From Candidatus Kapaibacterium sp. (GTDB lineage: Bacteria > Bacteroidota > Ignavibacteria > Kapaibacteriales > Kapaibacteriaceae), in the NCBI GenBank assembly GCA_044224925.1, contig JBGAJM010000001.1, positions 113,021-177,020 of the forward strand: a stretch of 64,000 nucleotides of DNA. The letters run 5' to 3'. The notes beneath the pieces were generated by a model. It was not told where the DNA came from, did no database searches, and saw nothing but the letters and a program-made list of their open reading frames with translations. Position numbers and translations under genes: made by a program. Of this stretch, positions 11,734 through 33,343 are shown one piece after another (position 1 is the first letter of the stretch; the number at the start of each line of letters is the position of its first letter).

Positions 11734-11920
11734 TCGATAGCCATTGCGGCAAGCAGGATTGTTCAGAAACTGTCAATGATCCAAAGATTCCCGATACTCA
11801 TGAAAGCACCACCATCACGTGATCAATCGAGGGCCTTTTGCCATGTAAACCTCCATCCGTAATATGAGAAATGAAGGCCATTGGATTGAAAATCAAACGG
11901 CGGAAATAACAAGGTGACTA

Positions 11921-12193: not shown

Positions 12194-12335
12194 CTAGAGC
12201 CTCCGTACACGAAGATCAGCTCAATCCATGGGCAGTTGGCAAAGAGTGATGTAGGGTGCGATACTTCCTAGCTCATTGCTAGATTGCATTTGACTGAACG
12301 TCGAAGCGCAGTACTATATATTCACAGTGGTGTGA

Positions 12336-12938: not shown

Positions 12939-13232
12939 AGCATCGTTTGCAAAGTGATCGTGTGCGACCGTATACGCCATCAGCCAAGATAGGACACACA
13001 AGAGAGCTCATGTTGAGTGAATTATGCCATCTCAGCATCGCATACGAATTCATCGCACTTCGTCAGAGAGTGCTCGTAAAGGCGTATGAAAGGCACGTTG
13101 CTCACGATAGGAGTCGACATCAACAAGACGGAGAATGGTCAAATGTTGTCGTAAATTCATGAGCACTACGCTTCCAGTGATCGTTGGCAGGTTCCGATCT
13201 CACTCGGTGTTTAGTCGAATATCACCACTTCT

Positions 13233-13499
13233 TTGGGTTACAGACTATCTGAACCAAAGTCTTTACTCACCGACAACTATATTGCCGGGAATTCAATGTG
13301 CTTTAAACAAATGTTGGCAATCGGACAAATGCAGTCAGATTATAGTCTGCGTAATCCGCCTGGAACGGTTTGGCACCACCCAGGCGACAATCCTGATGTG
13401 ATGCGTCTTTTGCGAGTGGAAGAGCTTGCCAACCTACATATACAACCGGTGCTTCATCCGAACGGCGCCGGTGGATACAGGAAAATCTATGTCCCCTGA
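13233..13499 (+). CDS. orphan polymorphic-toxin C-terminal module: WHH-type HNH/EndoVII-fold nuclease domain (no N-terminal delivery region)
   Basis: 88-aa ORF with a TTG start. It contains GTVWHHPGDNPDVMRLLRVEELANLHIQPVLHPNGAGG, which gives a WHH motif followed by Asn/His residues consistent with a beta-beta-alpha-Me fold. The frame opens only about 18 nt upstream (stop at 13212-13214). Its stop TGA at 13497-13499 overlaps the ATG at 13489 of the next gene. Confidence 0.5.
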   Translation: MGYRLSEPKSLLTDNYIAGNSMCFKQMLAIGQMQSDYSLRNPPGTVWHHPGDNPDVMRLLRVEELANLHIQPVLHPNGAGGYRKIYVP

Positions 13500-14112
13500 T
13501 CTCATTCGCAAGCAGTCAATTGAGACGGCATCGCGTCTCGGTTATTCAACTAACCACGCGTTGCCGCTCTTAGACGATGTTCAAAACTTGAGAACGATTG
13601 ATGAATCCGTCAACCGCCTCCTGTGCCTGAATGCAGTGGCTGCATGCGCGTACGGCTTCGATAGGCACAAGGCCGTGGAATGGCTGCGGCAGGAAGGCGT
13701 ATTTGATGAACTGGCGACATCAGAACGTCGGTTTATTGAGAACAGTGACGGTGATCCCATTCGCTTTCAAGTTCAGGTCGAAGGGTTATGGGCATTAGCG
13801 TGGGCACTTGGTATTGTGCCTCAACTTGACTTCGGGGAGTACTGTGACGACAATTTCGTCATCCTGATGCCGAATATAAGAAGCGGAGAAACAAGCGACG
13901 TCCTACGCTCGAAGATCAATCCTCGCACAACCGTCGAAGTCCTTGCGGCCTGTGATCTTGCGTATTGTCTTCATTGGGCGGCCAGAGAGGCTCTACTAAC
14001 CGGAGGCAAACTGCCTGGAGATGTGCAACTGTACGTCATCGAAGAAAGAAGGCGCATGCTAGAATGGTTAATTGGTGAAGAGGAATGGGATGAAGTAACA
14101 CTCGATACATAG
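13489..14112 (+). CDS. putative cognate immunity protein for the WHH toxin module
   Basis: ATG at 13489 overlaps the toxin stop (ATGTCCCCTGA). 207 aa. The track ORF starts earlier, at a TTG at 13426. No family assigned. Confidence 0.5.
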   Translation: MSPDLIRKQSIETASRLGYSTNHALPLLDDVQNLRTIDESVNRLLCLNAVAACAYGFDRHKAVEWLRQEGVFDELATSERRFIENSDGDPIRFQVQVEGLWALAWALGIVPQLDFGEYCDDNFVILMPNIRSGETSDVLRSKINPRTTVEVLAACDLAYCLHWAAREALLTGGKLPGDVQLYVIEERRRMLEWLIGEEEWDEVTLDT

Positions 14113-14488
14113 TCTGACGTTGCAATGTGCAGCGACGTCGAGCCGCTATTGTGTGAGGCAATGTCATTTAACTTAGACAACTGTCGATACGTCATTCAGT
14201 TAAGTGTCGCCACTTTCATTTATGCGCACAGGTAAGTCTCCAGGCCGGTCGCCCTCCATGGTAACTATGGATTGAATGAGATAGGGCAAAGGTCGATAGA
14301 TTGGCCAACACACTTCACCACGTAACACTTCGCCACGTGATGCATCGTGTAATTCTTCAATGCGCATTTCTAGATTTCATCTGCCTGGACGTTGATATGC
14401 AGTACTACGTGGTCATTGTGAGGCGGAAGATCGTTGGCATATGACGCAGAGTCGAGCTACTAGAACCCGAACAAAGAGGAAAAGACTG

Positions 14489-14995
14489 ATGAACAGAATG
14501 ATGAACAAGATGTTGTTCGTTCTCACAATTGCGGCTTTCTTCCCTCGAGAAGTAGAAACCTGCTCTTGTGTCGGTGGTGTGCCAAATATATCTAGATCGC
14601 TGAGCAACTTTGAAACAGCATTCATCGGAGTATGCCGTTCTTCAGAGGTGGATACCTTGATCACTTACATTCGAAAACCATTTCGCGATACGATCAAAAG
14701 CGTCGTGTCAACCTCACAGTTTGTCGTTAAGTATGGACTCAAGAATAGTCGGAGAATGGACAACATCACCGTCAGGTCACCGATTGAGAGTAATGCATGT
14801 GGCGTGCACTTTACGGTCGGTGGGTCGTACATTGTTTTCGGTGACGATACAAGGAGTCGCATGCGATATAGCCTGAATGACACAACCGTATTCGTTCTAG
14901 AGGTCAGCAAGTGCAGTGCGACTCAAGTCACCACGAAATCAGCGGTTGATACGTTGCGGAGGCTCACGGGAATGAAGATTGCATTTCCGAAATGA
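14489..14995 (+). CDS. hypothetical secreted protein (signal peptide MNRMMNKMLFVLTIAAFF)
   Basis: ORF 14441-14995, with a hydrophobic signal-like segment after the internal Met at 14489. Last ORF of the island before the tRNA-Lys terminator. Confidence 0.45.
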   Translation: MNRMMNKMLFVLTIAAFFPREVETCSCVGGVPNISRSLSNFETAFIGVCRSSEVDTLITYIRKPFRDTIKSVVSTSQFVVKYGLKNSRRMDNITVRSPIESNACGVHFTVGGSYIVFGDDTRSRMRYSLNDTTVFVLEVSKCSATQVTTKSAVDTLRRLTGMKIAFPK

Positions 14996-15236
14996 CATCA
15001 GATGAAGGTCTCTTCTTTTGTTGATGGCAAAGACCATCTCGGCCAACGAACCATCAGTCGAACTTTGTATTGTAGTATAGGGAGCAAACCCAAGACGAGG
15101 AAGTGATCGATAAGATCGAGCACATTGATTGGTGTGTGACATCTCGCATGTTCGTTGTTTCGCGCGTTCCTTCCAGAGTGACATGCAAACGGACTCTACG
15201 AAGTCAGGCCGTATTCGGAAGGTGCAGCGACAACGC

Positions 15237-15272: not shown

Positions 15273-15275
15273 CTG

Positions 15276-15348
15276 TGACCCCGTTGGGACTCGAACCCAA
15301 GACCCTTTGATTAAAAGTCAAATGCTCTACCAGCTGAGCTACGGGATC
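15276..15348 (-). tRNA. tRNA-Lys (anticodon UUU)
   Basis: The reverse complement GATCCCGTAGCTCAGCTGGTAGAGCATTTGACTTTTAATCAAAGGGTCTTGGGTTCGAGTCCCAACGGGGTCA folds as a cloverleaf: 7-bp acceptor stem, D-loop AGCTGGTA, anticodon stem TTTGA/TCAAA with loop CTTTTAA, T-loop TTCGAGT. It closely resembles canonical bacterial tRNA-Lys. CCA is not encoded. Confidence 0.85.
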
Positions 15349-17333: not shown

Positions 17334-19316
17334 TCAGCGACGTGGTGTTTCCACGATCACTTGAACGGTGCGCGAGAGTTGACGTCCGATGGGCATGTCG
17401 TTGGTGAAGATCTGTCGTGTCTCACCAACGCCCGATGCTGTGATGCTCGCGTCCTTTGCCCGAGATGCTAAGAACACGCGAACTGACTCTGCACGTTCCC
17501 GAGAGAGCTTGGCGTTGTAGTCGTCGTTGCCGATCCGGTCCGTATAGCCGATGATGGCCACCTTCGAATTGGACTTGATGGAGGGCAACACCATTTGTTC
17601 GAGGATGCGTTGATTGTCTTCGTTGATGGTGGACTTGTCGAAGTCGAAGAGGATGAGCGAGTACTTGTCGATGGTGCGGTCCGGAAGATTCTCGGTGCGC
17701 TTCTTCACGCTCGAGATATAGTCCACGGGGATCGAGCCACTCACACGTTGCGTGTCGCCTTCGACGGTCGACGCTGTGAACTCATAGTCGATGGGCACTT
17801 GCGCGGCCGAGAGCTCATTTGGCTTGATGGCCCATGTAAGCGCGCCCGGACGTCCTGCGCCGCGCAGGTCACGCAATGTGCGACCTGCTTGACCGATGTG
17901 CATCTGCCAACCGTTGAGCGAGTCCGACGTGGTGATCTTCGTGTGGAAGGCGATCACGTCGGGTGTTGCAATGCGCTGATTGTCGGCCGTGATCGTGAGC
18001 GGCGTGAGTACATCGGGCACGTTGCTCCTGAATTCGATGCGACGGTTCTCGGCAACACCGTCGGGATCGTTGCTGGTCGAGGGTCGTGCAGGAAGGGCAG
18101 ATGTGGTCGTGCTGATCCTGTCGGCCGCGATGTTGAAGGCCGTCACGAGATACGTCTTGGCAAAGTTCGCGCGTTGCGCTGCCAGGTCCTTCGTCTTCCC
18201 TTCCGCCTTGCCATCGGTGGTGCCGATGATGGTGAGCGTTGCCTGCGGATACTTGCGCATCCGTGCGCCAATGATGTTGAGCGTATTGCGATTCACTTCG
18301 ATGGCATCGAGCGGAAGTCCTTCGGGATTGAACTCGCCCTTCTCGGGGGCGATGCCGAGCATCTGCATGTCATCGGACGGTTCGCTCTTGTTCTCTTCGC
18401 AGAACACGTACGGGATCATGGGGAACATTTCGTTGTAGCGAACATCTTCGACGTTCACCACGGAAACGGGCTGCTCGCGACCGTCGCGATCGTAGGCCAC
18501 GATCTTTTCCATTTCCACCGAGAAGCCGCGCTTCGCTTCGGACGGCGGCTCGACAGGAGGGGCAATGGCGAAGAAGATGTTCACGCTCAGGCGGATCTGG
18601 CCGACCTTCCACGGGGTGAAGTTCGGGTCGGACGAGACGTTCGTGAGGGGCAGACGATACGTGAGCTCAGGCTGCAGATAGAACTTCTCGGAGAGCTTCA
18701 TGGTGTATCCCAGACCAAGCATCAGCGCGGCGCGCATGGTGGTGTTCGGGACCTCCCGTCCGTCCGGCAGATTGAGTGTCACGGCCGAGTCGCCATTGGG
18801 CAGCGACTTCTTATAGGCCATCGTTTGCGAGAGACTTGACGAAAGGGGAATGCCGAATTCGAGACCAACGAGCGGATGCAGACTGATACCCGAGAAGAGA
18901 TTGTAGAACTCCACACCGGGCGTGAACTCCAGAAGCGACGTGGATCCGGAGATGCTGTGCTGGATGGTGCCGCCATCTGTGGTGTTCTGTGTGGCCGTGC
19001 TGGACGAGTTGATGTTGTTGTAGCCGAGGCGACCGGTGAAGTGAATCGTCGAGGTGATCGGGAAGCCACCGATCAGACCGAAGGTCCCCGCCAACGTCGT
19101 GCTTCCATTCGCAAAGGAGAGCGAGTCGTTGACGTGCGATCCGAGTTGACCGCTCGTGAAATACGGGGAATTCCAGATCTTGCCGTTCATCGAGCTCATG
19201 TCGATCCCGAGTCCGCCATACAAGCCGATGCGTGCGGGGGGAATGACGTTTTCTTGAGCGATGGAGGACCGGACAAAGCAGAGAAGGGCCGCGAGGGCAA
19301 GGAGGGTTCGATTCAT
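17334..19316 (-). CDS. outer-membrane protein: N-terminal beta-barrel plus two OmpA-like peptidoglycan-binding domains
   Basis: Internal start at MNRTLLALAALLCFVRSSIAQ (signal peptide). The track ORF is N-terminally extended. Two OmpA-family segments are present (IIGTTDGKAEG...NRRIEF and IIGYTDRIGNDDYNAKLSRERAESV). Paralog of 22285..24288. Confidence 0.75.
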   Translation of the reverse strand: MNRTLLALAALLCFVRSSIAQENVIPPARIGLYGGLGIDMSSMNGKIWNSPYFTSGQLGSHVNDSLSFANGSTTLAGTFGLIGGFPITSTIHFTGRLGYNNINSSSTATQNTTDGGTIQHSISGSTSLLEFTPGVEFYNLFSGISLHPLVGLEFGIPLSSSLSQTMAYKKSLPNGDSAVTLNLPDGREVPNTTMRAALMLGLGYTMKLSEKFYLQPELTYRLPLTNVSSDPNFTPWKVGQIRLSVNIFFAIAPPVEPPSEAKRGFSVEMEKIVAYDRDGREQPVSVVNVEDVRYNEMFPMIPYVFCEENKSEPSDDMQMLGIAPEKGEFNPEGLPLDAIEVNRNTLNIIGARMRKYPQATLTIIGTTDGKAEGKTKDLAAQRANFAKTYLVTAFNIAADRISTTTSALPARPSTSNDPDGVAENRRIEFRSNVPDVLTPLTITADNQRIATPDVIAFHTKITTSDSLNGWQMHIGQAGRTLRDLRGAGRPGALTWAIKPNELSAAQVPIDYEFTASTVEGDTQRVSGSIPVDYISSVKKRTENLPDRTIDKYSLILFDFDKSTINEDNQRILEQMVLPSIKSNSKVAIIGYTDRIGNDDYNAKLSRERAESVRVFLASRAKDASITASGVGETRQIFTNDMPIGRQLSRTVQVIVETPRR

Positions 19317-19389
19317 GATGCAAAAATACCTTTTTCGCCGCTTCTGCGTCAGTGGAACATTCTTGGCATTCATTCGTTGGACGCGCACC

Positions 19390-20073
19390 ATGAACAACAT
19401 ATCCTCGCTCCTCGCCACCGTTCTTCTCTCATCCGTTCTTGTTGCAATGCCCATGCGTGCAGCAGACGGCGGATCGCCCGAAGGATTGAAGATCGGCGCA
19501 ACATTCGGTGTTGCCACCCCCAGCGATAAGATCGCCGACGTCTACGATTTCAACAACTCGGTCTCCGGCATGTACTCCGATGCATCGGCCATTGGCATGA
19601 GCCTCGGCGCCCGCTTCCGCTATGGAATGACGGAGCATCTGAGCTTCTGTGGCGGGATCGCCTACAACCGGTTCAATAACTCCGCACAAACGGCCACCAT
19701 CAGTGGCACCGGACAGACCTTTGTGGTGAACACGGCCACGAACATCATTCCGATCCATGCCGGTTTCGATTACTTCCTTCTCTCGTCGCTCATCCGTCCC
19801 TATGTTGGTGCAGAGCTCATGTACACGTATACGAGCACGACGATGATCTCCTCCACGGACGAATCCATTTTGACGTCGATCCTTGTTCCCGGACAGGAAC
19901 TCGAACCCAAGGTGTCGCGCTTTGGCGCAGGCCTGAGCGCAGGACTGGAACTGAACCTTGGTGGCCTGGCCCCGTTCTTCGAAGTGAAGTATGTGATGAG
20001 CAATCTTGTGGGTAAGACCACAGGAGAACCGGAGCGCAACTATCTGAACGTTACGCTCGGTCTGATGTTCTGA
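19390..20073 (+). CDS. small outer-membrane beta-barrel protein (OmpW/OmpA-TM-like)
   Basis: Signal peptide MNNISSLLATVLLSSVLVAMPMRA. Alternating amphipathic strands. C-terminal Phe (TLGLMF) is typical of OMP barrels. The start was moved to the internal Met. Confidence 0.55.
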   Translation: MNNISSLLATVLLSSVLVAMPMRAADGGSPEGLKIGATFGVATPSDKIADVYDFNNSVSGMYSDASAIGMSLGARFRYGMTEHLSFCGGIAYNRFNNSAQTATISGTGQTFVVNTATNIIPIHAGFDYFLLSSLIRPYVGAELMYTYTSTTMISSTDESILTSILVPGQELEPKVSRFGAGLSAGLELNLGGLAPFFEVKYVMSNLVGKTTGEPERNYLNVTLGLMF

Positions 20074-21544: not shown

Positions 21545-22258
21545 ATGCTCCTCGCCCTCATTCTCGGTGCTGTGATCGGTTACGTCCTGGCAATCCCGCC
21601 CGGACCCATTGGTATGGCATCTATTCGCACGGGTGTGAACGACGGATGGCGTCAGGCCATGAAGCTCGCCATCGGAGCGGGCATCTTCGATCTGCTCTAT
21701 TGCGCCTTGGCCATGATGGCCACGTCGGCCATTGTTGGGATGATGGATGAATGGGGCACACAATGGCCACTCTTCCGACCCGGCTTTCAGGTGCTCGTCG
21801 TCGTGCTCATGATCGTCTTCGGTGTGCATCAGATGCGCGTGAAAGCGCCCGAAGCACGCCTCGTTCCGAGCAAGCGCGCGGGGTCCATCGTGTCGAAGGC
21901 GGCATCGCACGGACCGTTCTTTGTGGGCGTGGGGTTTGCCGTGGCGAACCTTGCCAATCCGACCTTCATCCCGTCGTTGGCCGCCATGACGGCCTTCGTG
22001 CAGAAGAGCGACCTCTACGAATCGACCGTGTTGAGTAACGTTGCCTTCTCTGTGGGGTTTGGCGTTGGCAATGTGCTTTGGCTGTTCACGCTCGTGCGCA
22101 TCGTTCTGGCCTTTCGTGAACGCATGACGCCGATGTTCATCAAGCGCATTCAGCAGATCTCCGGTGCCACACTCATCGGATTCGGCACGTTCTATGGTGT
22201 TCGCGTCTTGGTCATCACGAAATGGGCAGATCTTTTTCGACTGGCATTTGCCATCTAA
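21545..22258 (+). CDS. LysE/RhtB-family amino acid exporter
   Basis: 237-aa membrane protein with the N-terminal IPPGPIGM motif of LysE-type translocators and 6 predicted TM helices. Divergent from the permease. Confidence 0.7.
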   Translation: MLLALILGAVIGYVLAIPPGPIGMASIRTGVNDGWRQAMKLAIGAGIFDLLYCALAMMATSAIVGMMDEWGTQWPLFRPGFQVLVVVLMIVFGVHQMRVKAPEARLVPSKRAGSIVSKAASHGPFFVGVGFAVANLANPTFIPSLAAMTAFVQKSDLYESTVLSNVAFSVGFGVGNVLWLFTLVRIVLAFRERMTPMFIKRIQQISGATLIGFGTFYGVRVLVITKWADLFRLAFAI

Positions 22259-22284: not shown

Positions 22285-24288
22285 ATGCATCGTTCGTTCC
22301 GGCTTTGTACATCGATCATCGTCTTCCTGATTGCGGCCGTGCTGTCGGCGCAACCACCCATCATCGGTATCACCGGTGGGTACCACTACATCTGGAACAC
22401 ATCCCAGATGCCCATCCTGGCGGGTTCCACGGACTGTGGCACGTTTGAGAGCGGTACGTCCAACGGGTTCTTTGGCGGTCTGACCTTTGGGTATCCGTTC
22501 CTTGACGGACTCTTCGAAGCCTCGGCCGCCGTGATGTATTCATCCCGTCCCGCCACGCTCACGGCACGCAGTGCCGATAATGCACAAGTGCTCGATCCCG
22601 TCACCAATACCTACGTTCCCTTCGTGCGTGACCATGTCTACGAGGCCTCGCTTGGCTACGTGATGGTCGACCTCGGCATTCGCATCCGTCCGGTGGCAGA
22701 CCTTCCGTTCTACCTTCGCGTTGGTGGCGATGCGGGGAATCCGATCGTCGCGTCGACGTTCACGCAAACGGAACAGGTGGTCTCTCCGGAGAGTGTGTTG
22801 TTCCCGGGTGGACTCAAGCAGCGCGTCGTCGGCTCGGGCGACATTCCGCAAACGAACACATCGTATGGTGTGAGTGGAACACTCGGTGCAGAGTTCATGC
22901 TCTCGAAGAACGTGTCCATCGCACCCGAGATCTCGTACCGACGGGGATTGAACTCCATTGCCAAGAACACGGAGTGGACGCAGTCGTTCGCATCGGGCGG
23001 CATTCATCTGCGCTATCGTCTCGACTTCGACGAGGAGGTGCCCCCGCCGCCTCCACCCCCTCCACCGCCTCCTCCTCCCGTCGAAGCGCCTCCACCTCCG
23101 CCACCGCCTGTGGTGGCCGCCGTGGTCGTGCCTCCGGTGCTCATTCAGTCGCTCACCACCCAACCGCTCGAGATCAACGAGACGGTGGTCACGCAGACGT
23201 TCCCGTTGCTGCCATATCTGTTCTTCGATTCGGCATCGGCGGCCGTGCGCTCGCGGTACGTGAGCACGGAGTCGACGCAGACCTTCTCCGAACAAGCACT
23301 GCCAAAGCAGACGTTGCCGATCTACTATCGCATGCTCGACATCGTAGGCAAGCGCATGGCCACGTCACGCGCAACTCTCGTGGTGACCGGTACCACAGAT
23401 GGAATGGAAGGCGGCACGGCGGAAGGGCGGAAGAAGTTGGCCGAAGACAGGGCCAAGGCCGTTGTCGACGTGATGCGCCGCCGTTGGGGACTCGACGCCT
23501 CGCGCTTCGTGATCCGCGCCGTGGAGAAGCCAACGGTCTCGTCGAACGATGCCTATGCCGAAGGCGTGGCCGAGAATCGCAAGGTGGAGCTCTCCAGTGC
23601 CGATCCGGCGCTGCTGGCACCGGTGGTGCATACGCGGTTCAACGAGTATGTGCCGGTGCAGCGCCGACATGATTTCAGCGTAGCTGTAAAGAATCCGGAA
23701 CTCGCGGGTTCATGGACGCTGAACGTCCGACGTGCGGGCGTGCTGCTGGGAACCAAGCAGGGGACCGGGCAGCCACCGTCGACGGTCACGTTCGATCTCA
23801 CGCAGGAGATCACGGACAAGATCGGTCCGCTCATGGGACAAAGCGATACGCTCGAGGCAACGATGACCATTCTGCAGACAAGCGGAGAGCCCGTTGAGTC
23901 GGTTCGACGCTTCGCCGTGAACAAGTCGGTCAGTACGTACGAAGTGAGTAGATTGAGTCTGATCGTGTTCGACTTCGACCAGAGCACCATTTCGGATGTG
24001 AATCGCGACATGATGAAGAAGGTGATCGCCTCGTCGGCACAGCCTACGAGCGTGGCCACCATCAAGGGATCGACGGACAAGCTTGGAGAGCTTGCGCATA
24101 ACATGGACCTCTCGGCGGCGCGTGCACGAGCAGTGGAACAGTATCTGCGAACGACAGCGCCATTTGTGAAGATCGAGTCGGTGACCGGCATTGGTCCTTC
24201 CGAATTGCCCTACGACAATTCATTGCCCGAAGGCCGGTACTACTGTCGAACGGTTTCGTTGTTCATTAAAACGCCAATACTTCGATGA
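22285..24288 (+). CDS. outer-membrane protein: beta-barrel, poly-proline linker and two OmpA-like domains
   Basis: Signal peptide MHRSFRLCTSIIVFLIAAVLSAQ, then a linker PPPPPPPPPPPPPVEAPPPPPPPVV. OmpA-like segments are present (TGTTDGMEGGTAEGRKKLAEDRAKAV...ENRKVEL and KGSTDKLGELAHNMDLSAARARAVEQYL). The gap to the DUF1800 gene downstream is 18 bp. Confidence 0.75.
   Translation: MHRSFRLCTSIIVFLIAAVLSAQPPIIGITGGYHYIWNTSQMPILAGSTDCGTFESGTSNGFFGGLTFGYPFLDGLFEASAAVMYSSRPATLTARSADNAQVLDPVTNTYVPFVRDHVYEASLGYVMVDLGIRIRPVADLPFYLRVGGDAGNPIVASTFTQTEQVVSPESVLFPGGLKQRVVGSGDIPQTNTSYGVSGTLGAEFMLSKNVSIAPEISYRRGLNSIAKNTEWTQSFASGGIHLRYRLDFDEEVPPPPPPPPPPPPPVEAPPPPPPPVVAAVVVPPVLIQSLTTQPLEINETVVTQTFPLLPYLFFDSASAAVRSRYVSTESTQTFSEQALPKQTLPIYYRMLDIVGKRMATSRATLVVTGTTDGMEGGTAEGRKKLAEDRAKAVVDVMRRRWGLDASRFVIRAVEKPTVSSNDAYAEGVAENRKVELSSADPALLAPVVHTRFNEYVPVQRRHDFSVAVKNPELAGSWTLNVRRAGVLLGTKQGTGQPPSTVTFDLTQEITDKIGPLMGQSDTLEATMTILQTSGEPVESVRRFAVNKSVSTYEVSRLSLIVFDFDQSTISDVNRDMMKKVIASSAQPTSVATIKGSTDKLGELAHNMDLSAARARAVEQYLRTTAPFVKIESVTGIGPSELPYDNSLPEGRYYCRTVSLFIKTPILR
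23041..23110 (+). repeat. CCN-rich low-complexity tract encoding the poly-proline linker of the OmpA-like protein
   Basis: cccccgccgcctccaccccctccaccgcctcctcctccc...cctccacctccgccaccgcct. A simple-sequence tract prone to length variation. Confidence 0.8.
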
Positions 24289-24306
24289 ACTCACTATCCA
24301 AAGGGT

Positions 24307-25878
24307 GTGCCCATGAATAGGCGAGAGCTCTTCACGAGCTTACTCCGATCGAGCGCACAACGACAATCGATCGACGGTCCACCACTCGTGACCGCAACAG
24401 GAGTGGAACCCTATACATCGCCACTGACGCTCGACGAGGTCTACCACCTCTTGCGCAGACTTGGCTTCGGAGCAACGGTCCAGCAGGCCGCGGGCTATGT
24501 TGGCAAGACGGCCGACGTGGTCGTGGAGGAACTCCTCGGATCCAATACCGAAACGGAACCGGCCAAGCCGGGAACGTGGGTGGATGCGGTGACGGAGAAT
24601 CCTGCGGGAGCCGACCTGCAAACGCGAGGCTCCATTTGGTCGGCCTGGCGTTCCAACATGGCGGCCTTCTCGAACTGGTGGCTCAAGGCCATGGCGGCAG
24701 ACACGAAGGCCGTCGAACGCATTACCTCGTTCTGGAACGCACACTTCATTTCCGAGTTCTCCTTTGACTCGGAAACGATGATCCCGCCGCAATCGCTGTA
24801 CCGTCAGTACCTGATGTTCCGCAAGGACCGACTCGCAGACTTCAAGCAATTGGTCCTCGACGTGTCCATCGATAACTCCATGGTCTTCTACCTCGGCGGA
24901 AATCTCAACAAGGTTGGGAAGCCCAACGAGAACTATGCACGCGAGCTCATGGAACTCTTCACCACCGGCATCGGATGGTACACGGAAGGCGATGTGAAAG
25001 AGGCCGCACGTGTGCTCACCGGTTGGAAGTCCGCCTTCTTCAACGACGAGCCGGCGAACAACGGATACTACAGTTCGTACTTCGTTCCGACTGACCACGA
25101 CGCGGGTCAGAAGACCGTCCTGGGTACGTCGATCGCCGCACGCACAGCCGACAACAACACCGAGTATCAAGTGAAGATGGAAGAGGTGTTCAAGCTGGTG
25201 GAGATCATCCACGAAGCGAGACCCGAAGCCGTTTCACGGTTCATCGCGACGAAGCTGTACAAGTTCTTCATCTATGCATCACCCATCGATACGAACACAC
25301 AGTTCGTCGATGATCTCGCAAAGGTGTTCCGCGATAACAACTTCGCCATCCGTCCGATGCTCAAGGCATTGTTCACGAGCTCGCACTTCTTCGATCCTGC
25401 CTTCCGTGGTGCCCAGATCAAGACCCCTATCGAATGTGTGGCCGGTCTCATGCGGCAGCTTGGCGTGACGGTGAACGACGGAGCGTCATGGACGAGCAAG
25501 ATGGATCAGACCATCTACGATGCACCGAACGTTGCAGGATGGCCGGGCTATCACTACTGGATCAGCACGAACACCTATCCGGTGCGTCGGCAGTTCGCAC
25601 GGACGGTGATCATGGCCATGACCGATGCACAGGTGACCGCGTTCATCAAGCAGTTCCCGGACTACACGGACGTGCACAAGTTCACCAAGAACGTGTGTGC
25701 CTATCTGTTGCCACTGCCGCTTTCGAGCGAGCGGTACAAGAACTACGAGAACTCGCTCTTGAGCGGTGCTCCCGATTACGACTGGCCCTCGATCGTCAAC
25801 GATCAGGCAACGGCCGCTGCGCGCGTGCGCAATTTCCTCGTGGCGATCTCCAAGGCGCCCGACTTTCAGCTCTGCTAA
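24307..25878 (+). CDS. DUF1800 family protein (second copy)
   Basis: YHLLRRLGFGATVQQ motif. The N-terminus MNRRELFTSLL has a weak RR motif. Followed 20 bp later by a DUF1501 gene. Confidence 0.85.
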   Translation: MPMNRRELFTSLLRSSAQRQSIDGPPLVTATGVEPYTSPLTLDEVYHLLRRLGFGATVQQAAGYVGKTADVVVEELLGSNTETEPAKPGTWVDAVTENPAGADLQTRGSIWSAWRSNMAAFSNWWLKAMAADTKAVERITSFWNAHFISEFSFDSETMIPPQSLYRQYLMFRKDRLADFKQLVLDVSIDNSMVFYLGGNLNKVGKPNENYARELMELFTTGIGWYTEGDVKEAARVLTGWKSAFFNDEPANNGYYSSYFVPTDHDAGQKTVLGTSIAARTADNNTEYQVKMEEVFKLVEIIHEARPEAVSRFIATKLYKFFIYASPIDTNTQFVDDLAKVFRDNNFAIRPMLKALFTSSHFFDPAFRGAQIKTPIECVAGLMRQLGVTVNDGASWTSKMDQTIYDAPNVAGWPGYHYWISTNTYPVRRQFARTVIMAMTDAQVTAFIKQFPDYTDVHKFTKNVCAYLLPLPLSSERYKNYENSLLSGAPDYDWPSIVNDQATAAARVRNFLVAISKAPDFQLC

Positions 25879-25898
25879 TAACCGAGATGTGGTGAACC

Positions 25899-27473
25899 AT
25901 GAAGCGTCGCAATTTTCTCAAGACAACAGCAGCAGCGGCCGTCGGAACGCAAGTGCTTGGCGGTATCCCGCTGCGCGCCTTCTCTCCGGTGCAGTTGCTC
26001 AACACATTGAATGCGGACGGAGATCAGATCCTGATCGTGATCCAGTTGTTCGGAGGGAACGATGGTCTGAACACGATCATCCCTGCCGACGACTCGGCCT
26101 ATTACGACATCCGACCTGATATCGCCGTTCCGAAGGACAAGACCGTTCCGGTGCTTGGCAAGGTCTACATGCACCCTGCGCTCGATCCGAAGAACACGTA
26201 CAACTTCCGTCGCATGATGGAAGACGGCAGACTTGCCGTGATCCAAGGCGTGGGATATGAGAATCCGAACCTCTCGCACTTCCGCTCCACGGACATCTGG
26301 CTCAGTGGTCTGAATCCGAAGCCGTGGGAAGACACGAAGCTGATCTATGGATGGCTTGGCAACTTCTTTGCCAACACGCAACCGGGGTTCCCGGACGTGC
26401 TGCCACCGGATCCGCTTGCCGTGCAGATCGGCGGATCGCTGTCCATGCTCTTCCAGAGTCCGAAGGGAGATGTGGGCATAGCGTTGACGGATCCGGACAA
26501 GTTCTTTGAACTTGGTCAAGGTCTGTCGCCCGACATGGATCCGATGTCCGATGAAACCTTCTACGGCAAGGAGTTCAACTTCGTACGTCTCGTCGCCGAG
26601 AAGTCCGACTTCTATTCGGCCAGCGTGAAGAATGCCTTCGACAAGGGCAAGAACATGGCCACGTACGATCAGACGAATGGCTTCGTACGTCAGATGCAAC
26701 TCGTTGCACGACTGATCAGCGGTGGACTGAAGTCGAAGGTCTACATGGTCTACATGGGTGGCTTCGATACGCACGTGCAACAACAGAACGTCGACCTCAC
26801 CGGTCTGCATCCCTTCCTCCTTGAATCCCTCTCAAAGGGCGTTGGAACGTTCATGCAGGACATGCTCTTGCAAGGACAGGCAGAACGCATCGTTGGCTAT
26901 ACGGCCTCCGAGTTCGGTCGACGTCCCTACGAGAACGGCTCGCGCGGTACCGATCACGGTGCTTCGTCCGTGCAGTTCGTCTTCGGTAATCGCGTGCGCT
27001 CCGGCGTGTTCGGGAACAACCCTGATCTGAAGAACCTTGATGGCAATGGCGATCTTCGGTATCAGTACGACTTCCGTCGTGTCTATGCCGATGTGATGGA
27101 AACATGGTTCGGTGGTTCGCCCGCCGACACCGAGGCCATCTTCGGTGAGCGGATCCTTCCGCTTGGCGTGCTCACGAATCCTGTGAGTGTGCACGACGCA
27201 TATCGCGGCAACGAACCGGTGAACATCTCGGTGCGCGCCTATCCGAATCCGACAGCATCGATGGCAACGCTCGAATGGCAGCAGGCCGTGCCGGCATCGG
27301 TGAGCGTGGAACTCTACAGCACCGAAGGTCGCTACGTCGAACGTGTCTTTACCGGCAATGTGGATGTTGGCACGGTGCGCATGCCGATCAAGGCAACAAC
27401 GTCGGGCGTGTACGAATGTGTGGTCACGGTCAATGGCTTGCGGAACGTTGTTCCTGTAGCATTCTTGCGATAA
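25899..27473 (+). CDS. DUF1501 family protein with a Tat signal and a T9SS C-terminal domain (second copy)
   Basis: MKRRNFLKTTAAAAVG carries the consensus Tat motif RRNFLK. FGGNDGLNT motif present. The C-terminus YPNPTASMATLEW...VELYSTEGRYVERVF...SGVYECVVTVNG is a textbook T9SS CTD. Confidence 0.85.
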   Translation: MKRRNFLKTTAAAAVGTQVLGGIPLRAFSPVQLLNTLNADGDQILIVIQLFGGNDGLNTIIPADDSAYYDIRPDIAVPKDKTVPVLGKVYMHPALDPKNTYNFRRMMEDGRLAVIQGVGYENPNLSHFRSTDIWLSGLNPKPWEDTKLIYGWLGNFFANTQPGFPDVLPPDPLAVQIGGSLSMLFQSPKGDVGIALTDPDKFFELGQGLSPDMDPMSDETFYGKEFNFVRLVAEKSDFYSASVKNAFDKGKNMATYDQTNGFVRQMQLVARLISGGLKSKVYMVYMGGFDTHVQQQNVDLTGLHPFLLESLSKGVGTFMQDMLLQGQAERIVGYTASEFGRRPYENGSRGTDHGASSVQFVFGNRVRSGVFGNNPDLKNLDGNGDLRYQYDFRRVYADVMETWFGGSPADTEAIFGERILPLGVLTNPVSVHDAYRGNEPVNISVRAYPNPTASMATLEWQQAVPASVSVELYSTEGRYVERVFTGNVDVGTVRMPIKATTSGVYECVVTVNGLRNVVPVAFLR

Positions 27474-27476
27474 CAC

Positions 27477-29078
27477 ATGGCGTCACGTCGCGACTTCATT
27501 CGAACAATAGTTCTTGGCACAGGGGCGATCTACACGGTCGCCCTTGGTGCATGTGAACGTCCGCGTCCGTCCGTCACCAAGCGCTCGACACCACCACTTC
27601 GAACCTCGGCACAACGGTTTCGTGATGCACATGCCTACCTGCGTGATCACGGTGCGGCCGCTGCCATCACGACACAACGCACGAGTGATGTGATCGTGGT
27701 CGGCGGGGGACTCTCCGGTCTTGCCGCCACACATCTGCTGCGAAGCGAAGGACGACACGTCACCCTCATCGAGAACGAACCACGCATCGGTGGTGCGGCC
27801 GTGTCCGAGCTCGTGGCCGGAGTGCCGACGTCACTTGGATCCGTGTACTTCGTGGATCGCTCTCCATTGTTGATGGATCTCATGAAGGCGGCATCGGTTG
27901 TCGACGTGGTCTGTCCCACCGATGGCTACATGCTGCATGGCACCTTGCATGCGAACATCTGGCGCGACGCCGACATCATGCGCTTTGCCACGTCCGAGCA
28001 AGACCGCACAGCGATGCGTCGGTTCCGCGACGATCTGCTGGCAATGTCCGATACCGATCTTCCTTCGTATCCGTTGCCGGCAACTCTTCCTGCGAAGTGG
28101 GCCGCCTACGATGCCATGTCCGGTGCCGACTTCCTCGCCCCCTACAACTCACCGCTCCTCTCCACCGTGCTCGATGCCTATGCGCGTTCGTCCATGGGTG
28201 CGGGCATTGACACGGTCAACGCCTACTGTCTGCTCAACTTCTATGCATCCGAGTTCGATCTCACCGAGATCGTTGAACGCTACACGTTCGATGGCGGCAT
28301 GGGTGGACTCACGCGCGGACTCGCCAACGTCATGCACGATTCCGTGCATACGAACGAGGTCGTCATCCGCGTGGAGAACACAGGCACCGGCGTTCGCGTG
28401 CTCTCCGTCGACGCGCACGGCGCTGTGATCGAGACCACGGCAGCACGCGCCATCGTGGCCACGCAGAAGTTCATGGCACCGTTCCTCATTCCTGAACTTG
28501 GCACGGCACAGCGCGATGCCATGCGTGGACTTTCCTATGCGCCATATGCGACCATTCATCTGCATTCCACGCGACCATTGGTGGATGCGTCGACCATCGA
28601 TACATGGTATCTGCCAACATCGCCACTCTTCTCCGATGTGATCAATCCGCAGGCAGTGTGGAAGGGCGGCACGGAGGGATATGTGTGTTCCATCTATGCA
28701 CCCATGCCACGCGATGCACGGGCGATGTTGCAAGACGATGCATCGTTCGCAGCACACGTGGCCGATGTGGTGCGGGCATTTCTTGCGCACGTCGACGATG
28801 CAACGGCCGAGAGCGTCACGGAGATCTATGCATGGGCGTGGGGACACAGTCTCGTGATCCCGACCCGCGGTTCACACAATGGTCCGGCACAACTGGCGTC
28901 TGCACCCGTAGGGAACATCTTCTTTGCCAACACAGATAACGACGCATCACCGGCCGTGGAGAGCGCGCTGGCAAGCGCCACGGCAGCAGCAGAGGGAACT
29001 CTGCGATCGCTCGCGCACTCTACCGGACGCGCAACAGCGTACGCTCCTAACCACTCACATTCAAGGATCTCACAATGA
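27477..29078 (+). CDS. FAD-dependent amine oxidase-like oxidoreductase with a Tat / lipoprotein-type signal
   Basis: MASRRDFIRTIVLGTGAIYTVALGAC has an RRDF Tat motif and a possible lipobox. The dinucleotide-binding motif VIVVGGGLSGLAATHLL...LIENEPRIGG is typical of flavin amine oxidases. It starts 3 bp after the DUF1501 stop. Confidence 0.7.
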   Translation: MASRRDFIRTIVLGTGAIYTVALGACERPRPSVTKRSTPPLRTSAQRFRDAHAYLRDHGAAAAITTQRTSDVIVVGGGLSGLAATHLLRSEGRHVTLIENEPRIGGAAVSELVAGVPTSLGSVYFVDRSPLLMDLMKAASVVDVVCPTDGYMLHGTLHANIWRDADIMRFATSEQDRTAMRRFRDDLLAMSDTDLPSYPLPATLPAKWAAYDAMSGADFLAPYNSPLLSTVLDAYARSSMGAGIDTVNAYCLLNFYASEFDLTEIVERYTFDGGMGGLTRGLANVMHDSVHTNEVVIRVENTGTGVRVLSVDAHGAVIETTAARAIVATQKFMAPFLIPELGTAQRDAMRGLSYAPYATIHLHSTRPLVDASTIDTWYLPTSPLFSDVINPQAVWKGGTEGYVCSIYAPMPRDARAMLQDDASFAAHVADVVRAFLAHVDDATAESVTEIYAWAWGHSLVIPTRGSHNGPAQLASAPVGNIFFANTDNDASPAVESALASATAAAEGTLRSLAHSTGRATAYAPNHSHSRISQ

Positions 29079-29782
29079 AGGTACTCGCATCTGGTCTCCT
29101 CGTTGGAGCACTCGCCATTGGCATGATGTCCTGCAAGTCTTCCACGAACCCTGCAGGCGAAGGTTCGCTCTCGATGGAAACATCGATCCCAACAGCCACC
29201 GTCCAGTCCATGACGATCAAGGGCGAACACGCTGAAGCATTGAACTGCGATAGCGTTCGTATCTCCCGTGTACGACTTCTTCTGTCGCGCATCAAGCTTC
29301 AGGCGATCAACGACGATTCGGGTACGGGTGGACGTGACGTGAAGGCCGGACCGGCCGTGATCACGTTCGAACGCGGCAAGGTCACATCGGTCTTCGCAAC
29401 CACCGTCCCTGTCGGCAAGTACGATCGCATCAAGCTGGAATCCCATCGATTCACACCACCGGAAGTGACCACATGGGCCGGTGATGCCGTCTTCGGCGAC
29501 TTCGCAACAGCTGATCGTCCAACGGTGATCATCGAAGGTACCGTCTGGAATGGCGGCGTGGCAACAGACTTCGTGCAGACGAGCGATAACACGGAGAACC
29601 TGACCATCAAGGCCGAACCGTACTTCGAGATCACGGAATCCACGGCGACAACATTGAAGATCAACTTCGATGCTGTTGAGTGGCTCAAGGTTGGCGGCAA
29701 GATCCGCGACCCGCGTGATAGCGACAACAAGAACGACATGAAGCTTCGCCTGAAGTCCTTCTTCAAGCTGATGCGCAAGTAA
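29075..29782 (+). CDS. lipoprotein of unknown function
   Basis: MKVLASGLLVGALAIGMMSCKSS has a lipobox-like motif ending in Cys. The start overlaps the preceding stop by 4 bp. Followed by a strong terminator. Confidence 0.6.
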   Translation: MKVLASGLLVGALAIGMMSCKSSTNPAGEGSLSMETSIPTATVQSMTIKGEHAEALNCDSVRISRVRLLLSRIKLQAINDDSGTGGRDVKAGPAVITFERGKVTSVFATTVPVGKYDRIKLESHRFTPPEVTTWAGDAVFGDFATADRPTVIIEGTVWNGGVATDFVQTSDNTENLTIKAEPYFEITESTATTLKINFDAVEWLKVGGKIRDPRDSDNKNDMKLRLKSFFKLMRK

Positions 29783-29796
29783 ACGGACCTTCGTCC

Positions 29797-29842
29797 AAAA
29801 AAAAACGGGTACGACCATTTGGTCGTACCCGTTTTTCGTTTC
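29797..29842. terminator. bidirectional rho-independent terminator (A9 - ACGGGTACGACC - ATTT - GGTCGTACCCGT - T5)
   Basis: Perfect 12-bp stem flanked by a poly-A run upstream and a poly-T run downstream. It lies between the + strand lipoprotein gene and the minus-strand tRNA-Leu. Confidence 0.7.
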
Positions 29843-29846
29843 GATG

Positions 29847-29930
29847 TGCGGAAGACGGGACTTGAACCCGTACGCCCTTGCGAGCGCCACCCCCTCAAGA
29901 TGGTGCGTCTGCCAATTTCGCCACTTCCGC
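29847..29930 (-). tRNA. tRNA-Leu (anticodon GAG), type II with a long variable arm
   Basis: The reverse complement GCGGAAGTGGCGAAATTGGCAGACGCACCATCTTGAGGGGGTGGCGCTCGCAAGGGCGTACGGGTTCAAGTCCCGTCTTCCGCA has a 7-bp acceptor stem, anticodon loop TTGAGGG, a 15-nt variable arm and T-arm ACGGG-TTCAAGT-CCCGT. Length is 84 nt. Confidence 0.8.
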
Positions 29931-31069: not shown

Positions 31070-33316
31070 TTATCGCGTGACGGCGAGCTTGCCCACGGCT
31101 GCTTCCTTGGTGGAAGCCGAGAGAGCATGGATGATGTAGACGCCGGGTGGGACGGTGCGACCTTGCACGTCCTTACCGTTCCACAGTGCCTGACGTCCGT
31201 TCGTTTGCACGGCGGCAACCAGTTCGCCGGCCGCCGTCATGATGCGCACGTCGGAATCGGCGGCAAGTCCATCGATGGTGATCACACCATCGGCGTCGGG
31301 TCTAAACGGCTGCGGATAACAGCGAATGGCGTAGGAGTCGAGCGGCTTGACGCTCTGCGTGAGAACCGACGAACAACCGCTCATCGTTCCGAAGTAGGCG
31401 CGTCCGGTCCGATCGTCCACGACAACGCTCTTCACGTTGTCCGTCAGCAGAGGAGAGTTGTTCTGCGTGATGATGGAGAGCACTTCCGTGCCGTCTTCGT
31501 TCAAGACATAGACGCCATTCGATGTGGCGATCCACTTGTTGTTGACAGCGTCAACGAAGATGTCGTTCACATTCAATGCCGAGAGTGCCGTGATGCGACG
31601 AACGAAGGGAATGGTCGTGTTGGACACGGTGGAAGGTGAAGCGATCACGGACACACCGCGCGCCGTGCCGATCCACAGAGCACCATTCTTATCGATGCGC
31701 AAGGCGCGGATCACATTGTCCTGGAGTTGCGTGTTGGACGAGCGGAGCATTTGACAGACATCGTCCGCTTCGTTGTTCGGTGTGTTCTTATCGTGGAAGG
31801 CAAGCAGACCGTTGCCGGTGGGACCGGCCATCCATTTCGTCCCGCCGTTATCGATGGCGATCACGCGATACTGATTGGCGCGCAGATCGTAGCAGTTCTT
31901 GAAGTAGCCGAAGTTCTGATCCTTGTCGCGCGTGACGAGCAATCGATCCGCGCCAAGTTCATTCACGATCCAAAGCTTGCCGTTGCGATCCGTGATGGCA
32001 TCGCTGGTGACCACGTAGTTCGCATCGTTACTGATGCCCACGAGGGGACTGTTCGTGTTGTTCCACTTTTGCAGGACCACGCCGCCTTCTGCCTTCTTGG
32101 CCTCGACAATGCCATAGCCCCAGCTTGACAGCCACACACTTCCATCGGGTTGTGCATTCACGCGGTGATAGGAGTTCGAACCCATCTCGGCATTTGCTTC
32201 CTTGGTGAACTCGAACCACGTGGTCCCATCGAAGGCCATCACGCCTTGTCCCGTGCGGAACGGTTCTTCGTCGGTGGCAGACCACAGCCAGCCATCGCGG
32301 TCGATGGTCAGGTGTGAGAACTGATTCGTGCGTGGTGAGTTCACAAAGACGTCTTGTCGGTCCGTACCATCGACGATGGCAAGCGGAAGGTTGACCACAA
32401 AGGCGATCACCACGGTACGTCCGTTTCGTGTGGTGGTGGCATGGCCGTTCACTTGGCCGGGGAAGGAGACGGGAAGCGGACCTGACAAGGTGCGCACGAA
32501 CGACTCTTCCGATGCATAGACCTCGGTCGCCGTGGTCGTGAGTCCAACAAGTGTTGCGCCACCGGAGTATACCGTACGGAACGACGAACCTTCGGCGATC
32601 AGAATGGCGCCCGCAGCCGTTGCAAAGACATCGTTGGCGGTGGCACGTACGAACGACACGGCAGGCACCGGAAGGCCATTGGACGTACCGAAGAGCTTCC
32701 AGACGCTTGGAAGACGCAACGTTTCGGATGAGAGCGGTGCGACCACGATGCCGGAATCAGTCGAGGCCCAAATGGAATCGCGCAATGTTGTTAGCGAGGT
32801 GACGCGAGTCTTCTCTTGCAAGGGACCGATGCGATCGACGGTCTCGCGGAACACATCGTTGGCGGGATCGAAGGACACGATGCCGAAGTCCGTGGCGATG
32901 TAGAGCAGACCGTTCTTCAACAGGAAGTCGTTGATCCGTCGACGTTGATACACCGTGGCACGACGGATGTCGGTGATGTTCTTGAACTGCAGGTCTTCGG
33001 TGACGATGGTGAGCGATCCGTCGAAGCATCCAACGAAGACGCGCTTCGAAGCTGTGTCGCACAGGATGGCCGTCACATCCAGGTTCAACAACGCGCCAAC
33101 GTTGCGATACTCCTGAATGGAACTGTCGGCAGCGCTATACACAAAAAGACCGCCCGGAGTGGCGGCCCAGATGCGACCTTTGGAATCGACAGATGCGGCG
33201 CGTACGGTGCGCATGGTCGAGAATGTTTGCCAGTCGCTCAAACTGATGGTCGATTGCGCCGAGAGGGTCACGGCGGCAAGGAGCAAGGCACAGAGGATGC
33301 TGATACGTGTGGTCAT
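31070..33316 (-). CDS. secreted two-component-regulator-propeller (Reg_prop) repeat protein with a T9SS C-terminal domain
   Basis: Signal peptide MTTRISILCALLLAAVTLSAQ. Many beta-propeller blade repeats (GGLFVY, GLLYIATDFGIVSFD, DGSVWLSSWGYGIV, GALWIGTARGVSVI, NKWIATSNGVYVL). C-terminal CTD with GRTVPPGVYIIHAL. Confidence 0.7.
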   Translation of the reverse strand: MTTRISILCALLLAAVTLSAQSTISLSDWQTFSTMRTVRAASVDSKGRIWAATPGGLFVYSAADSSIQEYRNVGALLNLDVTAILCDTASKRVFVGCFDGSLTIVTEDLQFKNITDIRRATVYQRRRINDFLLKNGLLYIATDFGIVSFDPANDVFRETVDRIGPLQEKTRVTSLTTLRDSIWASTDSGIVVAPLSSETLRLPSVWKLFGTSNGLPVPAVSFVRATANDVFATAAGAILIAEGSSFRTVYSGGATLVGLTTTATEVYASEESFVRTLSGPLPVSFPGQVNGHATTTRNGRTVVIAFVVNLPLAIVDGTDRQDVFVNSPRTNQFSHLTIDRDGWLWSATDEEPFRTGQGVMAFDGTTWFEFTKEANAEMGSNSYHRVNAQPDGSVWLSSWGYGIVEAKKAEGGVVLQKWNNTNSPLVGISNDANYVVTSDAITDRNGKLWIVNELGADRLLVTRDKDQNFGYFKNCYDLRANQYRVIAIDNGGTKWMAGPTGNGLLAFHDKNTPNNEADDVCQMLRSSNTQLQDNVIRALRIDKNGALWIGTARGVSVIASPSTVSNTTIPFVRRITALSALNVNDIFVDAVNNKWIATSNGVYVLNEDGTEVLSIITQNNSPLLTDNVKSVVVDDRTGRAYFGTMSGCSSVLTQSVKPLDSYAIRCYPQPFRPDADGVITIDGLAADSDVRIMTAAGELVAAVQTNGRQALWNGKDVQGRTVPPGVYIIHALSASTKEAAVGKLAVTR

Positions 33317-33343
33317 GCGGAATGCCGACGAGTCAGTTCCCAT

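Follow-up and report, generated by a model that had tools for sequence, protein, structure and literature searches.

A DUF1501 protein with a twin-arginine signal and a probable type IX-type C-terminal domain marks a lineage-specific composite locus in Candidatus Kapaibacterium

Within a 64,000-nucleotide stretch of Candidatus Kapaibacterium sp. (GenBank assembly GCA_044224925.1, contig JBGAJM010000001.1, positions 113,021 to 177,020 of the forward strand; hereafter the window), five co-oriented genes encode, in order, an OmpA-type outer-membrane protein (gene 1), a DUF1800 protein (gene 2), a DUF1501 protein (gene 3), a flavin amine-oxidase-family protein (gene 4) and a small lipoprotein (gene 5). 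This locus is a composite, specific to its lineage, built around a gene pair that is already known but unexplained. Judged by gene neighbourhoods, the conserved unit is the DUF1800-DUF1501 pair, joined by gene 1 as a trio in Kapabacteria/Ignavibacteria-like lineages, with genes 4 and 5 as an accessory tail. The most informative feature of the locus is the co-occurrence of a twin-arginine translocation (Tat) signal and a type IX secretion system (T9SS) C-terminal domain (CTD) in one DUF1501 protein whose DUF1800 partner is signal-less. On balance, sequence comparison leads us to favour a single transcription unit, probably a LysE-type gene plus the five genes, which would consist of a conserved core (genes 1-3) with a proposed export route and a variable tail.

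Results

Conservation of the gene set across relatives

Relatives of the locus (each designated by L and a number) were sampled from three sides. On the oxidase side, 32 homologues were aligned and one genome per species was scanned, yielding 37 loci, with tblastn searches using all window proteins. On the DUF1800 side, seven further orthologue loci (44-52% identical) were collected, and on the DUF1501 side a metagenome scan with the DUF1501 alignment provided 80 loci at 33-95% identity. The proteins of the locus are 91-98% identical to those of the nearest public sequence, a Bacteroidetes/Kapabacteria metagenome-assembled genome (MAG), and all relatives are MAGs of Kapabacteria or of Ignavibacteria type.

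Inspection of the metagenome loci reveals DUF1800 directly 5' of DUF1501 in 75 of 80, with four of the five exceptions located at contig ends. A first, sequence-only reading of the window had called the pair widespread and functionally uncharacterised, and this description holds: no functional study of DUF1800 or DUF1501 was found in the literature. The other genes accompany the pair to different extents. A gene 1-like protein lies upstream in 10 of the 80 loci, and a full-length gene 1 orthologue is directly upstream in 5/7 of the DUF1800-orthologue loci; full-length orthologues stand 5' of DUF1800 in the oxidase-bearing loci of group A (defined below) and in L038, L040, L041, L043 and L044, and every close relative has gene 1 upstream. 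Of the DUF1501-centred loci, 5/80 contain the oxidase, all with a DUF1501 at least 64% identical, and 2/80 contain gene 5, plus one weak case; neither occurs in any of the seven DUF1800-orthologue loci.

The loci gathered from the oxidase side fall into two contexts. Group A (19 loci) presents LysE and genes 1-2-3-4 in order with PorZ downstream, and the gene 1-to-gene 4 order is repeated in five metagenome loci. Of the 16 group A loci that could be assessed for gene 5, 9 carry it; in one case it lies on the other strand, and in another it is duplicated. Group B (17 loci) contains an oxidase orthologue 36-43% identical to gene 4 and no homologue of genes 1-3 within 10 kb; in all 14 loci that extend upstream, the genes ahead of the oxidase instead encode a MerR regulator, a WD40 propeller and a CarboxypepD_reg+OmpA protein. 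A neighbour-joining oxidase tree resolves groups A and B as two clean clades, and because the tree splits cleanly by context, the oxidase-DUF1501 adjacency is best described as a single historical event.

These distributions bear directly on the proposal of the sequence-only reading that the five proteins work together in oxidative uptake or processing at the periplasm and outer membrane. In such a system, the oxidase would act on a product or substrate of DUF1800/DUF1501. The proposal would agree with the gaps of 3 nt between genes 3 and 4 and -4 nt between genes 4 and 5, with their common terminator, with the envelope targeting of every protein, and with a gene 3-gene 4 adjacency that persists in the 19 genome and five metagenome loci at 36-48% oxidase identity, beyond the genus of the window. 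However, that adjacency arose once in the tree and is missing in 75/80 DUF1501-centred and 7/7 DUF1800-orthologue loci, with L043 and L047, which share the synteny of the window, among them; the sister-clade oxidase orthologues have entirely different partners, and gene 5 is dispensed with in many of the assessable loci. Co-occurrence of the five families, which that reading had offered as its own check, is thus largely lacking, and we consider a five-protein functional system quite unlikely.

In L043 and L047, DUF1501 leads directly to tRNA-Leu/PorZ, with neither oxidase nor gene 5 between them. In 8/9 relatives checked, a tRNA-Leu(GAG) gene closes the gene string on its 3' side, on a strand that varies (Table 1). 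This end of the locus is a rearrangement-prone spot at which oxidase and gene 5 are gained or lost. Other genes also occur 3' of the pair. L041 (11368-12636) and L044 (11494-12705) encode a PKD+FGE-sulfatase-domain protein after the trio, together with a GFO/IDH/MocA oxidoreductase, and further examples are a GH18 chitinase with a T9SS tail (L038), Laminin_G_3 proteins (L038, L040) and Nramp (L039). A functional link between DUF1501 and FGE-sulfatase was rejected, as it is seen in L041 and L044 only and DUF1501 is devoid of a C/S-x-P-x-R motif; a link to chitin was likewise set aside, the GH18 gene of L038 and a published chitin-synthase association being single cases.

Conservation of gene order also raises the prospect that nothing beyond the DUF1800-DUF1501 pair is functionally linked, and that gene 1, LysE, the oxidase and gene 5 adjoin it through inherited synteny. 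The wider synteny of L043 comprises a 1-deoxy-D-xylulose-5-phosphate (DXP) synthase, a paralogous OmpA protein, an amino-acid permease, LysE, genes 1-3 and PorZ; DXP synthase, paralogous OmpA, permease, LysE and PorZ are conserved in the same loci, so gene-order conservation within the clade is weak evidence of function. Yet gene 1 stays 5' of the pair amid wholly different and unrelated flanks (L038, L040, L041/L044, L056/57 and L061/62), which makes inherited synteny as the full explanation distinctly improbable.

The DUF1501 protein combines a Tat signal with a probable T9SS-type C-terminal domain

Gene 3 matches DUF1501 (PF07394) at 64.6 bits against a cutoff of 27, and 20/20 relatives match the model too. 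Its N-terminus reads MKRRNFLKTTAAAAVGTQVLGGIPLRAFS, in which R3, R4 and F6 are invariant in the alignment. Residues 1-29 form a twin-arginine signal with the sequence hallmarks of a Tat substrate, namely an S/T-R-R-x-F-L-K motif, a hydrophobic core and an AxA-type cleavage site, and the Pfam TAT_signal model matches 15/20 relatives. At the opposite end of the protein, the Por_Secre_tail model matches 18/20 relatives (best E 8.9e-8) and 9/10 distant RR-bearing DUF1501 relatives, six of them at or above the Pfam cutoff. Both features are combined across the family: among 75 complete metagenomic DUF1501 relatives, RRxFL is present in 64/75, the CTD in 71/75 and both in 60/75. PorZ, located 1.3 kb downstream of the locus, scores 370 bits against an NCBIfam cutoff of 260, indicating that T9SS machinery is encoded in the genome.

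Several observations weigh against the reading that we favour. The window copy of DUF1501 falls below threshold at both termini, with TAT_signal at 20.1 bits (just below the cutoff of 22.7) and Por_Secre_tail at 24.0 against 27. In a T9SS prediction study that excludes Tat proteins by rule, each of the 102 cargo proteins proven by experiment is reported to carry a Sec signal, and none a Tat signal (bioRxiv 10.1101/2023.03.31.535141); with 102/102 proven cargo of the Sec type, a Tat-to-T9SS route is without precedent. A search of the PDB with the DUF1501 profile returned no alkaline-phosphatase-superfamily structure. Most distant DUF pairs (70/80) lack gene 1, and its link to the pair is to that extent lineage-limited. 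Finally, genes 3 and 4 are closely spaced throughout the 19 group A loci, which makes a functional connection of local scope possible in that clade.

The subthreshold tail score (with TIGR04183 at 22.5 against an NCBIfam cutoff of 23) and the missing precedent for Tat-dependent T9SS cargo (bioRxiv 10.1101/2023.03.31.535141) would both be accounted for if the C-terminus were a mere Ig-like beta-sandwich that resembles a CTD, in a periplasmic protein with no involvement of the T9SS. Against this stand the frequency of the match among close and distant relatives and the position of the domain, which is always at the extreme C-terminus. Moreover, a hidden Markov model of the clade's DUF1501 C-termini matches the CTD of a BNR/sortilin protein at 4093-6486 with E = 2.8e-13, and that CTD, a bona fide example within the window, passes the Pfam cutoff. 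PDB searches with gene 3, as single sequence and as profile, retrieved no solved relative; their matches were CTD-like and confined to the C-terminus of gene 3, the profile hits being the CTD-bearing chains 5jvk and 8glk_D. We therefore regard the Ig-like alternative as unlikely and retain a T9SS-type CTD as the probable assignment. Compared with T9SS type A cargo, gene 3 would share the extreme C-terminal Por_Secre_tail/TIGR04183-type domain, and a PorZ gene is nearby; it differs at the N-terminus, where the Sec signal of the 102 proven cargo proteins is replaced by a twin-arginine signal.

The possible chemistry of DUF1501 was approached from its invariant residues. The alignment identifies D55, S126/H127, D290/H292 and D352/H353 as invariant. 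This Asp/His/Ser set is compatible with the alkaline-phosphatase clan, in which Pfam places DUF1501, and the two together would point to hydrolase chemistry.

The DUF1800 partner is signal-less

Gene 2 matches DUF1800 (PF08811) at 295.3 bits (cutoff 26.1) over model positions 1-418 of 419, with a weak PSD2 match of 20.6 bits. It is an all-alpha protein without a signal peptide; no solved relative was found by PDB sequence search and no family by NCBIfam search. Because gene 2 homologues begin MNRR, the true start is probably ATG 24313 (MNRR...) rather than GTG 24307. R5 and R6 are conserved without exception across the 46 close homologues that were aligned. The MNRRxF motif (window 24313-24360) is invariant in close DUF1800 relatives, yet no hydrophobic core follows it, and in distant members (N-termini compared in L045-L124) the N-terminal extension is missing altogether. 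Among the 68 metagenomic DUF1800 partners of DUF1501, a hydrophobic N-terminus is present in 0/68 and an N-terminal RR is kept by 24/68.

This arrangement resembles Tat hitchhiker complexes such as hydrogenase HybO-HybC or DmsA-DmsB, in which one subunit provides the RR signal for an always-adjacent, signal-less partner. It differs in that the close DUF1800 homologues (46/46) retain RR without a hydrophobic core, unlike known hitchhikers.

A second possibility, which we hold only tentatively, is that DUF1800 stays in the cytoplasm as a maturation or proofreading factor for its Tat substrate DUF1501, in a role like that of TorD/DmsD. The missing signal peptide in 68/68 partners and the universal, tight pairing with DUF1501 would suit such a role, as would the view of Tat as the route for proteins that fold or load cofactors in the cytoplasm (PMC3542564). 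The invariance of R5/R6 in the 46 close homologues argues in the other direction, since a cytoplasmic chaperone would have no need for MNRRxF. Of the 68 partners in the broader metagenomic sample, only 24 keep the motif. At 520 residues, DUF1800 is also far larger than known Tat chaperones. Lastly, DUF1800 proteins in the membrane-vesicle fraction of Entotheonella (PMC12981691) hint at an extracytoplasmic location.

Gene 1 is a two-OmpA-domain envelope protein

The OmpA model (PF00691) matches gene 1 above its gathering score in two stretches (56.8 bits, cutoff 27.2), and NCBIfam places OmpA/MotB-type matches at residues 347-437 and 557-661. At the N-terminus, OMP_b-brl_2 matches weakly (19.5 bits, below the 27-bit cutoff). 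From its N-terminus, gene 1 carries a Sec signal and a probable beta-barrel, followed by a linker rich in proline and a pair of OmpA-like domains of the peptidoglycan-binding type. Of the OmpA-like barrel with a poly-proline linker described in the sequence-only reading, the OmpA domains and the proline run are borne out, while the barrel is matched below cutoff only.

Genes 4 and 5 form the accessory tail

The proposed identity of gene 4 as a flavin amine oxidase with a twin-arginine motif and a lipobox is upheld. Gene 4 matches Amino_oxidase (PF01593) at 77 bits (cutoff 19.8) from residues 79-506 over model positions 1-440 of 443, and NAD_binding_8, the Rossmann motif that binds flavin adenine dinucleotide (FAD), at 48.8 bits; across the 32 aligned homologues, neither the RR motif nor lipobox Cys26 varies. 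The flavin amine oxidase superfamily includes monoamine oxidase (MAO), polyamine oxidase, L-amino-acid oxidase and protoporphyrinogen oxidase (PPOX), and in Pseudomonas aeruginosa SpdH is a periplasmic member with a Tat signal. Gene 4 shares with them the full-length PF01593 domain and the FAD-binding N-terminus. In contrast, it reaches none of the NCBIfam subfamily models (TIGR00562, 33 vs 97.85; PigB, 60/850; HpnE, 37/283; CrtI, 25/238), has invariant motifs of its own family (NAYCLLNFY and WGHxLVIP) and bears a Tat signal with lipobox. Its PDB matches are mostly limited to the FAD-binding N-terminus, the best being PPOX (2ivd) and MAO-B. An exhaustive profile search collected 416 full-length relatives (clusters) at E <= 1e-30, with names that are uninformative ("FAD-dependent oxidoreductase", "protoporphyrinogen oxidase", "hypothetical"). 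By these profile matches, gene 4 is a divergent full-length amine-oxidase-fold flavoprotein of a family without a name. Assignment as PPOX/HemY was rejected because the Tat signal and lipobox would place it outside the cytoplasm and its score is far under the equivalog cutoff.

In group B, the three upstream genes described above lie about 3 kb upstream of the oxidase in L003, L016, L018, L020, L022, L023, L025-L028, L031, L034, L035 and L037. Among NCBIfam models, the CarboxypepD_reg+OmpA protein is matched best by the C-terminal third of PorE, a T9SS protein, at 45-52 bits over model positions 421-596 of 648, well short of the T9SS_PorE cutoff of 600; together with the WD40 propeller, it resembles a split PorE. 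With a PorE-like gene in group B and T9SS genes near group A, the oxidase adjoins T9SS-related genes in both clades.

Gene 5 contains a lipobox with Cys20, has no Pfam match above cutoff and no NCBIfam family, and scores below the Pfam gathering scores of MbnP (PF20243) and DUF4382 (PF14321). We describe it as an MbnP/DUF4382-like beta-sandwich lipoprotein that is variably present. Identification as a true MbnP was rejected: in contrast to MbnP (PDB 7l6g), the copper-binding partner of MbnH, gene 5 lacks the four-Cys motif and shows no His, Met or Trp that is invariant, and there is no MbnH-like dihaem enzyme near it.

The paralogues in the window are ancient

A paralogous DUF1800-DUF1501 pair and a paralogous two-OmpA-domain protein exist in the window as the sequence-only reading had noted (Table 1), and its further suggestion that they represent a duplicated, partly dispersed module is not supported. 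Their identities to genes 2, 3 and 1 are only 25-30%, and a recent duplication of the module was rejected on that ground. The OmpA paralogue is separately conserved beside the DXP synthase gene, with orthologues 45-52% identical at the same loci, and both OmpA paralogues are kept separately across the lineage. At this level of divergence, the apparent second-copy genes are ancient paralogues and not a duplicated module. The paralogous DUF1501 scores 23.6 with TIGR04183, at or above the cutoff of 23. Alignments with orthologues of the OmpA paralogue start near residue 63-68 of its long open reading frame (ORF), and we favour the shorter version beginning at 19316, as annotated earlier. An OMP_b-brl ORF at 19261-20073 (+) overlaps the 5' end (19316-19517) of the long version.

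Layout of the transcription unit

ORF coordinates and Pfam agree on five co-oriented genes with the domains first proposed for them (Table 1), and the coordinates reproduce the proposed gaps of 18, 20, 3 and -4 nt. The GC content of the five genes (0.57-0.60) is the same as in the remaining window. The strong terminator proposed for the end of the gene string is likewise recovered: folding of the hairpin at 29806-29835 gives -31.8 kcal/mol (z = -6.48), a stability equalled by 0/200 shuffles, and the hairpin is preceded by a run of A and followed by a run of T, as in intrinsic terminators. A consensus scan found no internal plus-strand terminator among genes 1-5, a scan that also missed the hairpin at 29806-29835; the strongest plus-strand hairpin in 29783-29845 was overlooked by it and confirmed by folding. 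A sigma-70-consensus promoter scan returned nothing, with a consensus that is not informative for this phylum.

Given the tight co-oriented spacing, the absence of an internal plus-strand terminator in that scan and the strong terminal hairpin, co-transcription is plausible, and the five genes are probably co-transcribed. The earlier description of a single operon is plausible, with LysE as the probable first gene of the unit. The LysE gene ends 26 nt before gene 1 on the same strand, the intergenic sequence folds into no hairpin, and LysE is directly 5' of gene 1 in 14 genome loci (13 of group A plus L043) and in metagenome loci L045, L046 and L049.

Elsewhere in the window, GC content drops to 0.45-0.46 over 9883-15000. 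This stretch, which contains an Imm11 immunity-family ORF and a DUF4272 ORF and ends at a tRNA-Lys gene (Table 1), looks like a foreign island or an immunity-gene cassette inserted at the tRNA.

Table 1. Coordinates of features of the locus, its paralogues, flanking genes and relatives (window positions unless a locus is named)
Feature	Position	Strand	Basis or remark
Gene 1, OmpA-type outer-membrane protein	22285-24288	+	ORF and Pfam
Gene 1 proline-rich linker	23032-23139 (about residues 250-285)	+	13 P, VEA, 7 P in translation
Gene 2, DUF1800	24307-25878	+	ORF and Pfam
Gene 3, DUF1501	25899-27473	+	ORF and Pfam
Gene 3 probable C-terminal T9SS type A sorting domain (CTD)	27228-27470 (residues 444-524)	+	Por_Secre_tail/TIGR04183
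Gene 4, flavin amine-oxidase family, Tat signal and lipobox	27477-29078	+	ORF and Pfam
Gene 5, small lipoprotein	29075-29782	+	ORF, lipobox
LysE-type translocator gene	21545-22258	+	Pfam LysE, 43.6 bits
Bidirectional intrinsic terminator hairpin	29806-29835	.	Folding
tRNA-Leu(GAG)	29846-29930	-	ARAGORN
PorZ, T9SS component	31070-33343	-	NCBIfam T9SS_PorZ; Pfam PorZ_N_b_propeller
DUF1800 paralogue	6605-8164	+	25% identical to gene 2; no signal peptide
DUF1501 paralogue	8172-9686	+	30% identical to gene 3; RR signal and T9SS CTD
Two-OmpA-domain outer-membrane paralogue	17334-19316	-	26% identical to gene 1
Imm11 immunity-family ORF	11173-11733		In low-GC stretch
DUF4272 ORF	13426-14112		In low-GC stretch
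tRNA-Lys(TTT)	15275-15348		End of low-GC stretch
tRNA-Leu(GAG), relatives	L043 11265-11349; L047 5363-5447; L004 6055-6139; L008 9922-10006	+	
tRNA-Leu(GAG), minus-strand cases	window 29846-29930; L001; L005; L015; L049	-	

Discussion

Two published associations place the pair in context. DUF1800-DUF1501 has been reported as a co-operonic pair without assigned function beside horizontally transferred bacterial chitin synthases (PMC5122149). The adjacency, strand and order of the genes and the twin-arginine motif of DUF1501 are the same in those pairs as here, whereas the present locus differs in the T9SS CTD on DUF1501, the two-OmpA protein upstream and the lack of a chitin synthase. In the Planctomycetes-Verrucomicrobia-Chlamydiae (PVC) superphylum, DUF1501 has been described as a Tat-signal protein paired with PSCyt/PSD proteins (PMC3542564). 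Those PSCyt/PSD1 (DUF1549/DUF1553)-DUF1501 modules of Planctomycetes and Verrucomicrobia likewise combine a Tat-signal DUF1501 with a large partner, and the weak PSD2 match of gene 2 is a further likeness; here, DUF1800 takes the place of that partner and is devoid of a cytochrome c motif, and the host, a Kapabacterium, has a T9SS.

In the simplest model compatible with these observations, which we infer, folded DUF1501 would be exported by Tat, perhaps together with DUF1800, and then secreted by the T9SS. The core would comprise the two-OmpA-domain outer-membrane protein followed by DUF1800 and DUF1501, with the pair belonging to a large subfamily of T9SS-bearing bacteria in which DUF1501 has Tat signal and CTD and DUF1800 is signal-less. 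DUF1501 would be a metal-dependent hydrolase of the alkaline-phosphatase/sulfatase type that is folded and loaded in the cytoplasm, crosses the inner membrane by Tat, possibly with DUF1800 as hitchhiker, and is passed to the T9SS to reside on or outside the outer membrane. The OmpA-type product of gene 1 may tether this part of the envelope to peptidoglycan. The tail would provide an enzyme of the flavin amine-oxidase family, periplasmic and lipid-anchored, together with the MbnP/DUF4382-like lipoprotein. This tail was added a single time, in one Kapabacterial clade, at the rearrangement-prone spot by tRNA-Leu, and is not an obligatory partner of the core.

DUF1800-DUF1501 is among the commonest unexplained bacterial gene pairs, and the present analysis sorts its true companions from neighbours of one lineage. 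The oxidase and the lipoprotein are one-lineage neighbours, so the search for substrates of the pair should not start from the amine oxidase. Dual targeting by Tat and T9SS with a signal-less partner provides a concrete, testable model of localisation. It is possible, and we advance it with caution, that the DUF1501 subfamily represents a first class of T9SS cargo that uses Tat and not Sec, exported pre-folded and metal-loaded, possibly as a heterodimer with DUF1800. If true, this would extend the accepted rule of Sec-dependent T9SS cargo, and prediction pipelines that discard Tat proteins would be missing a whole class.

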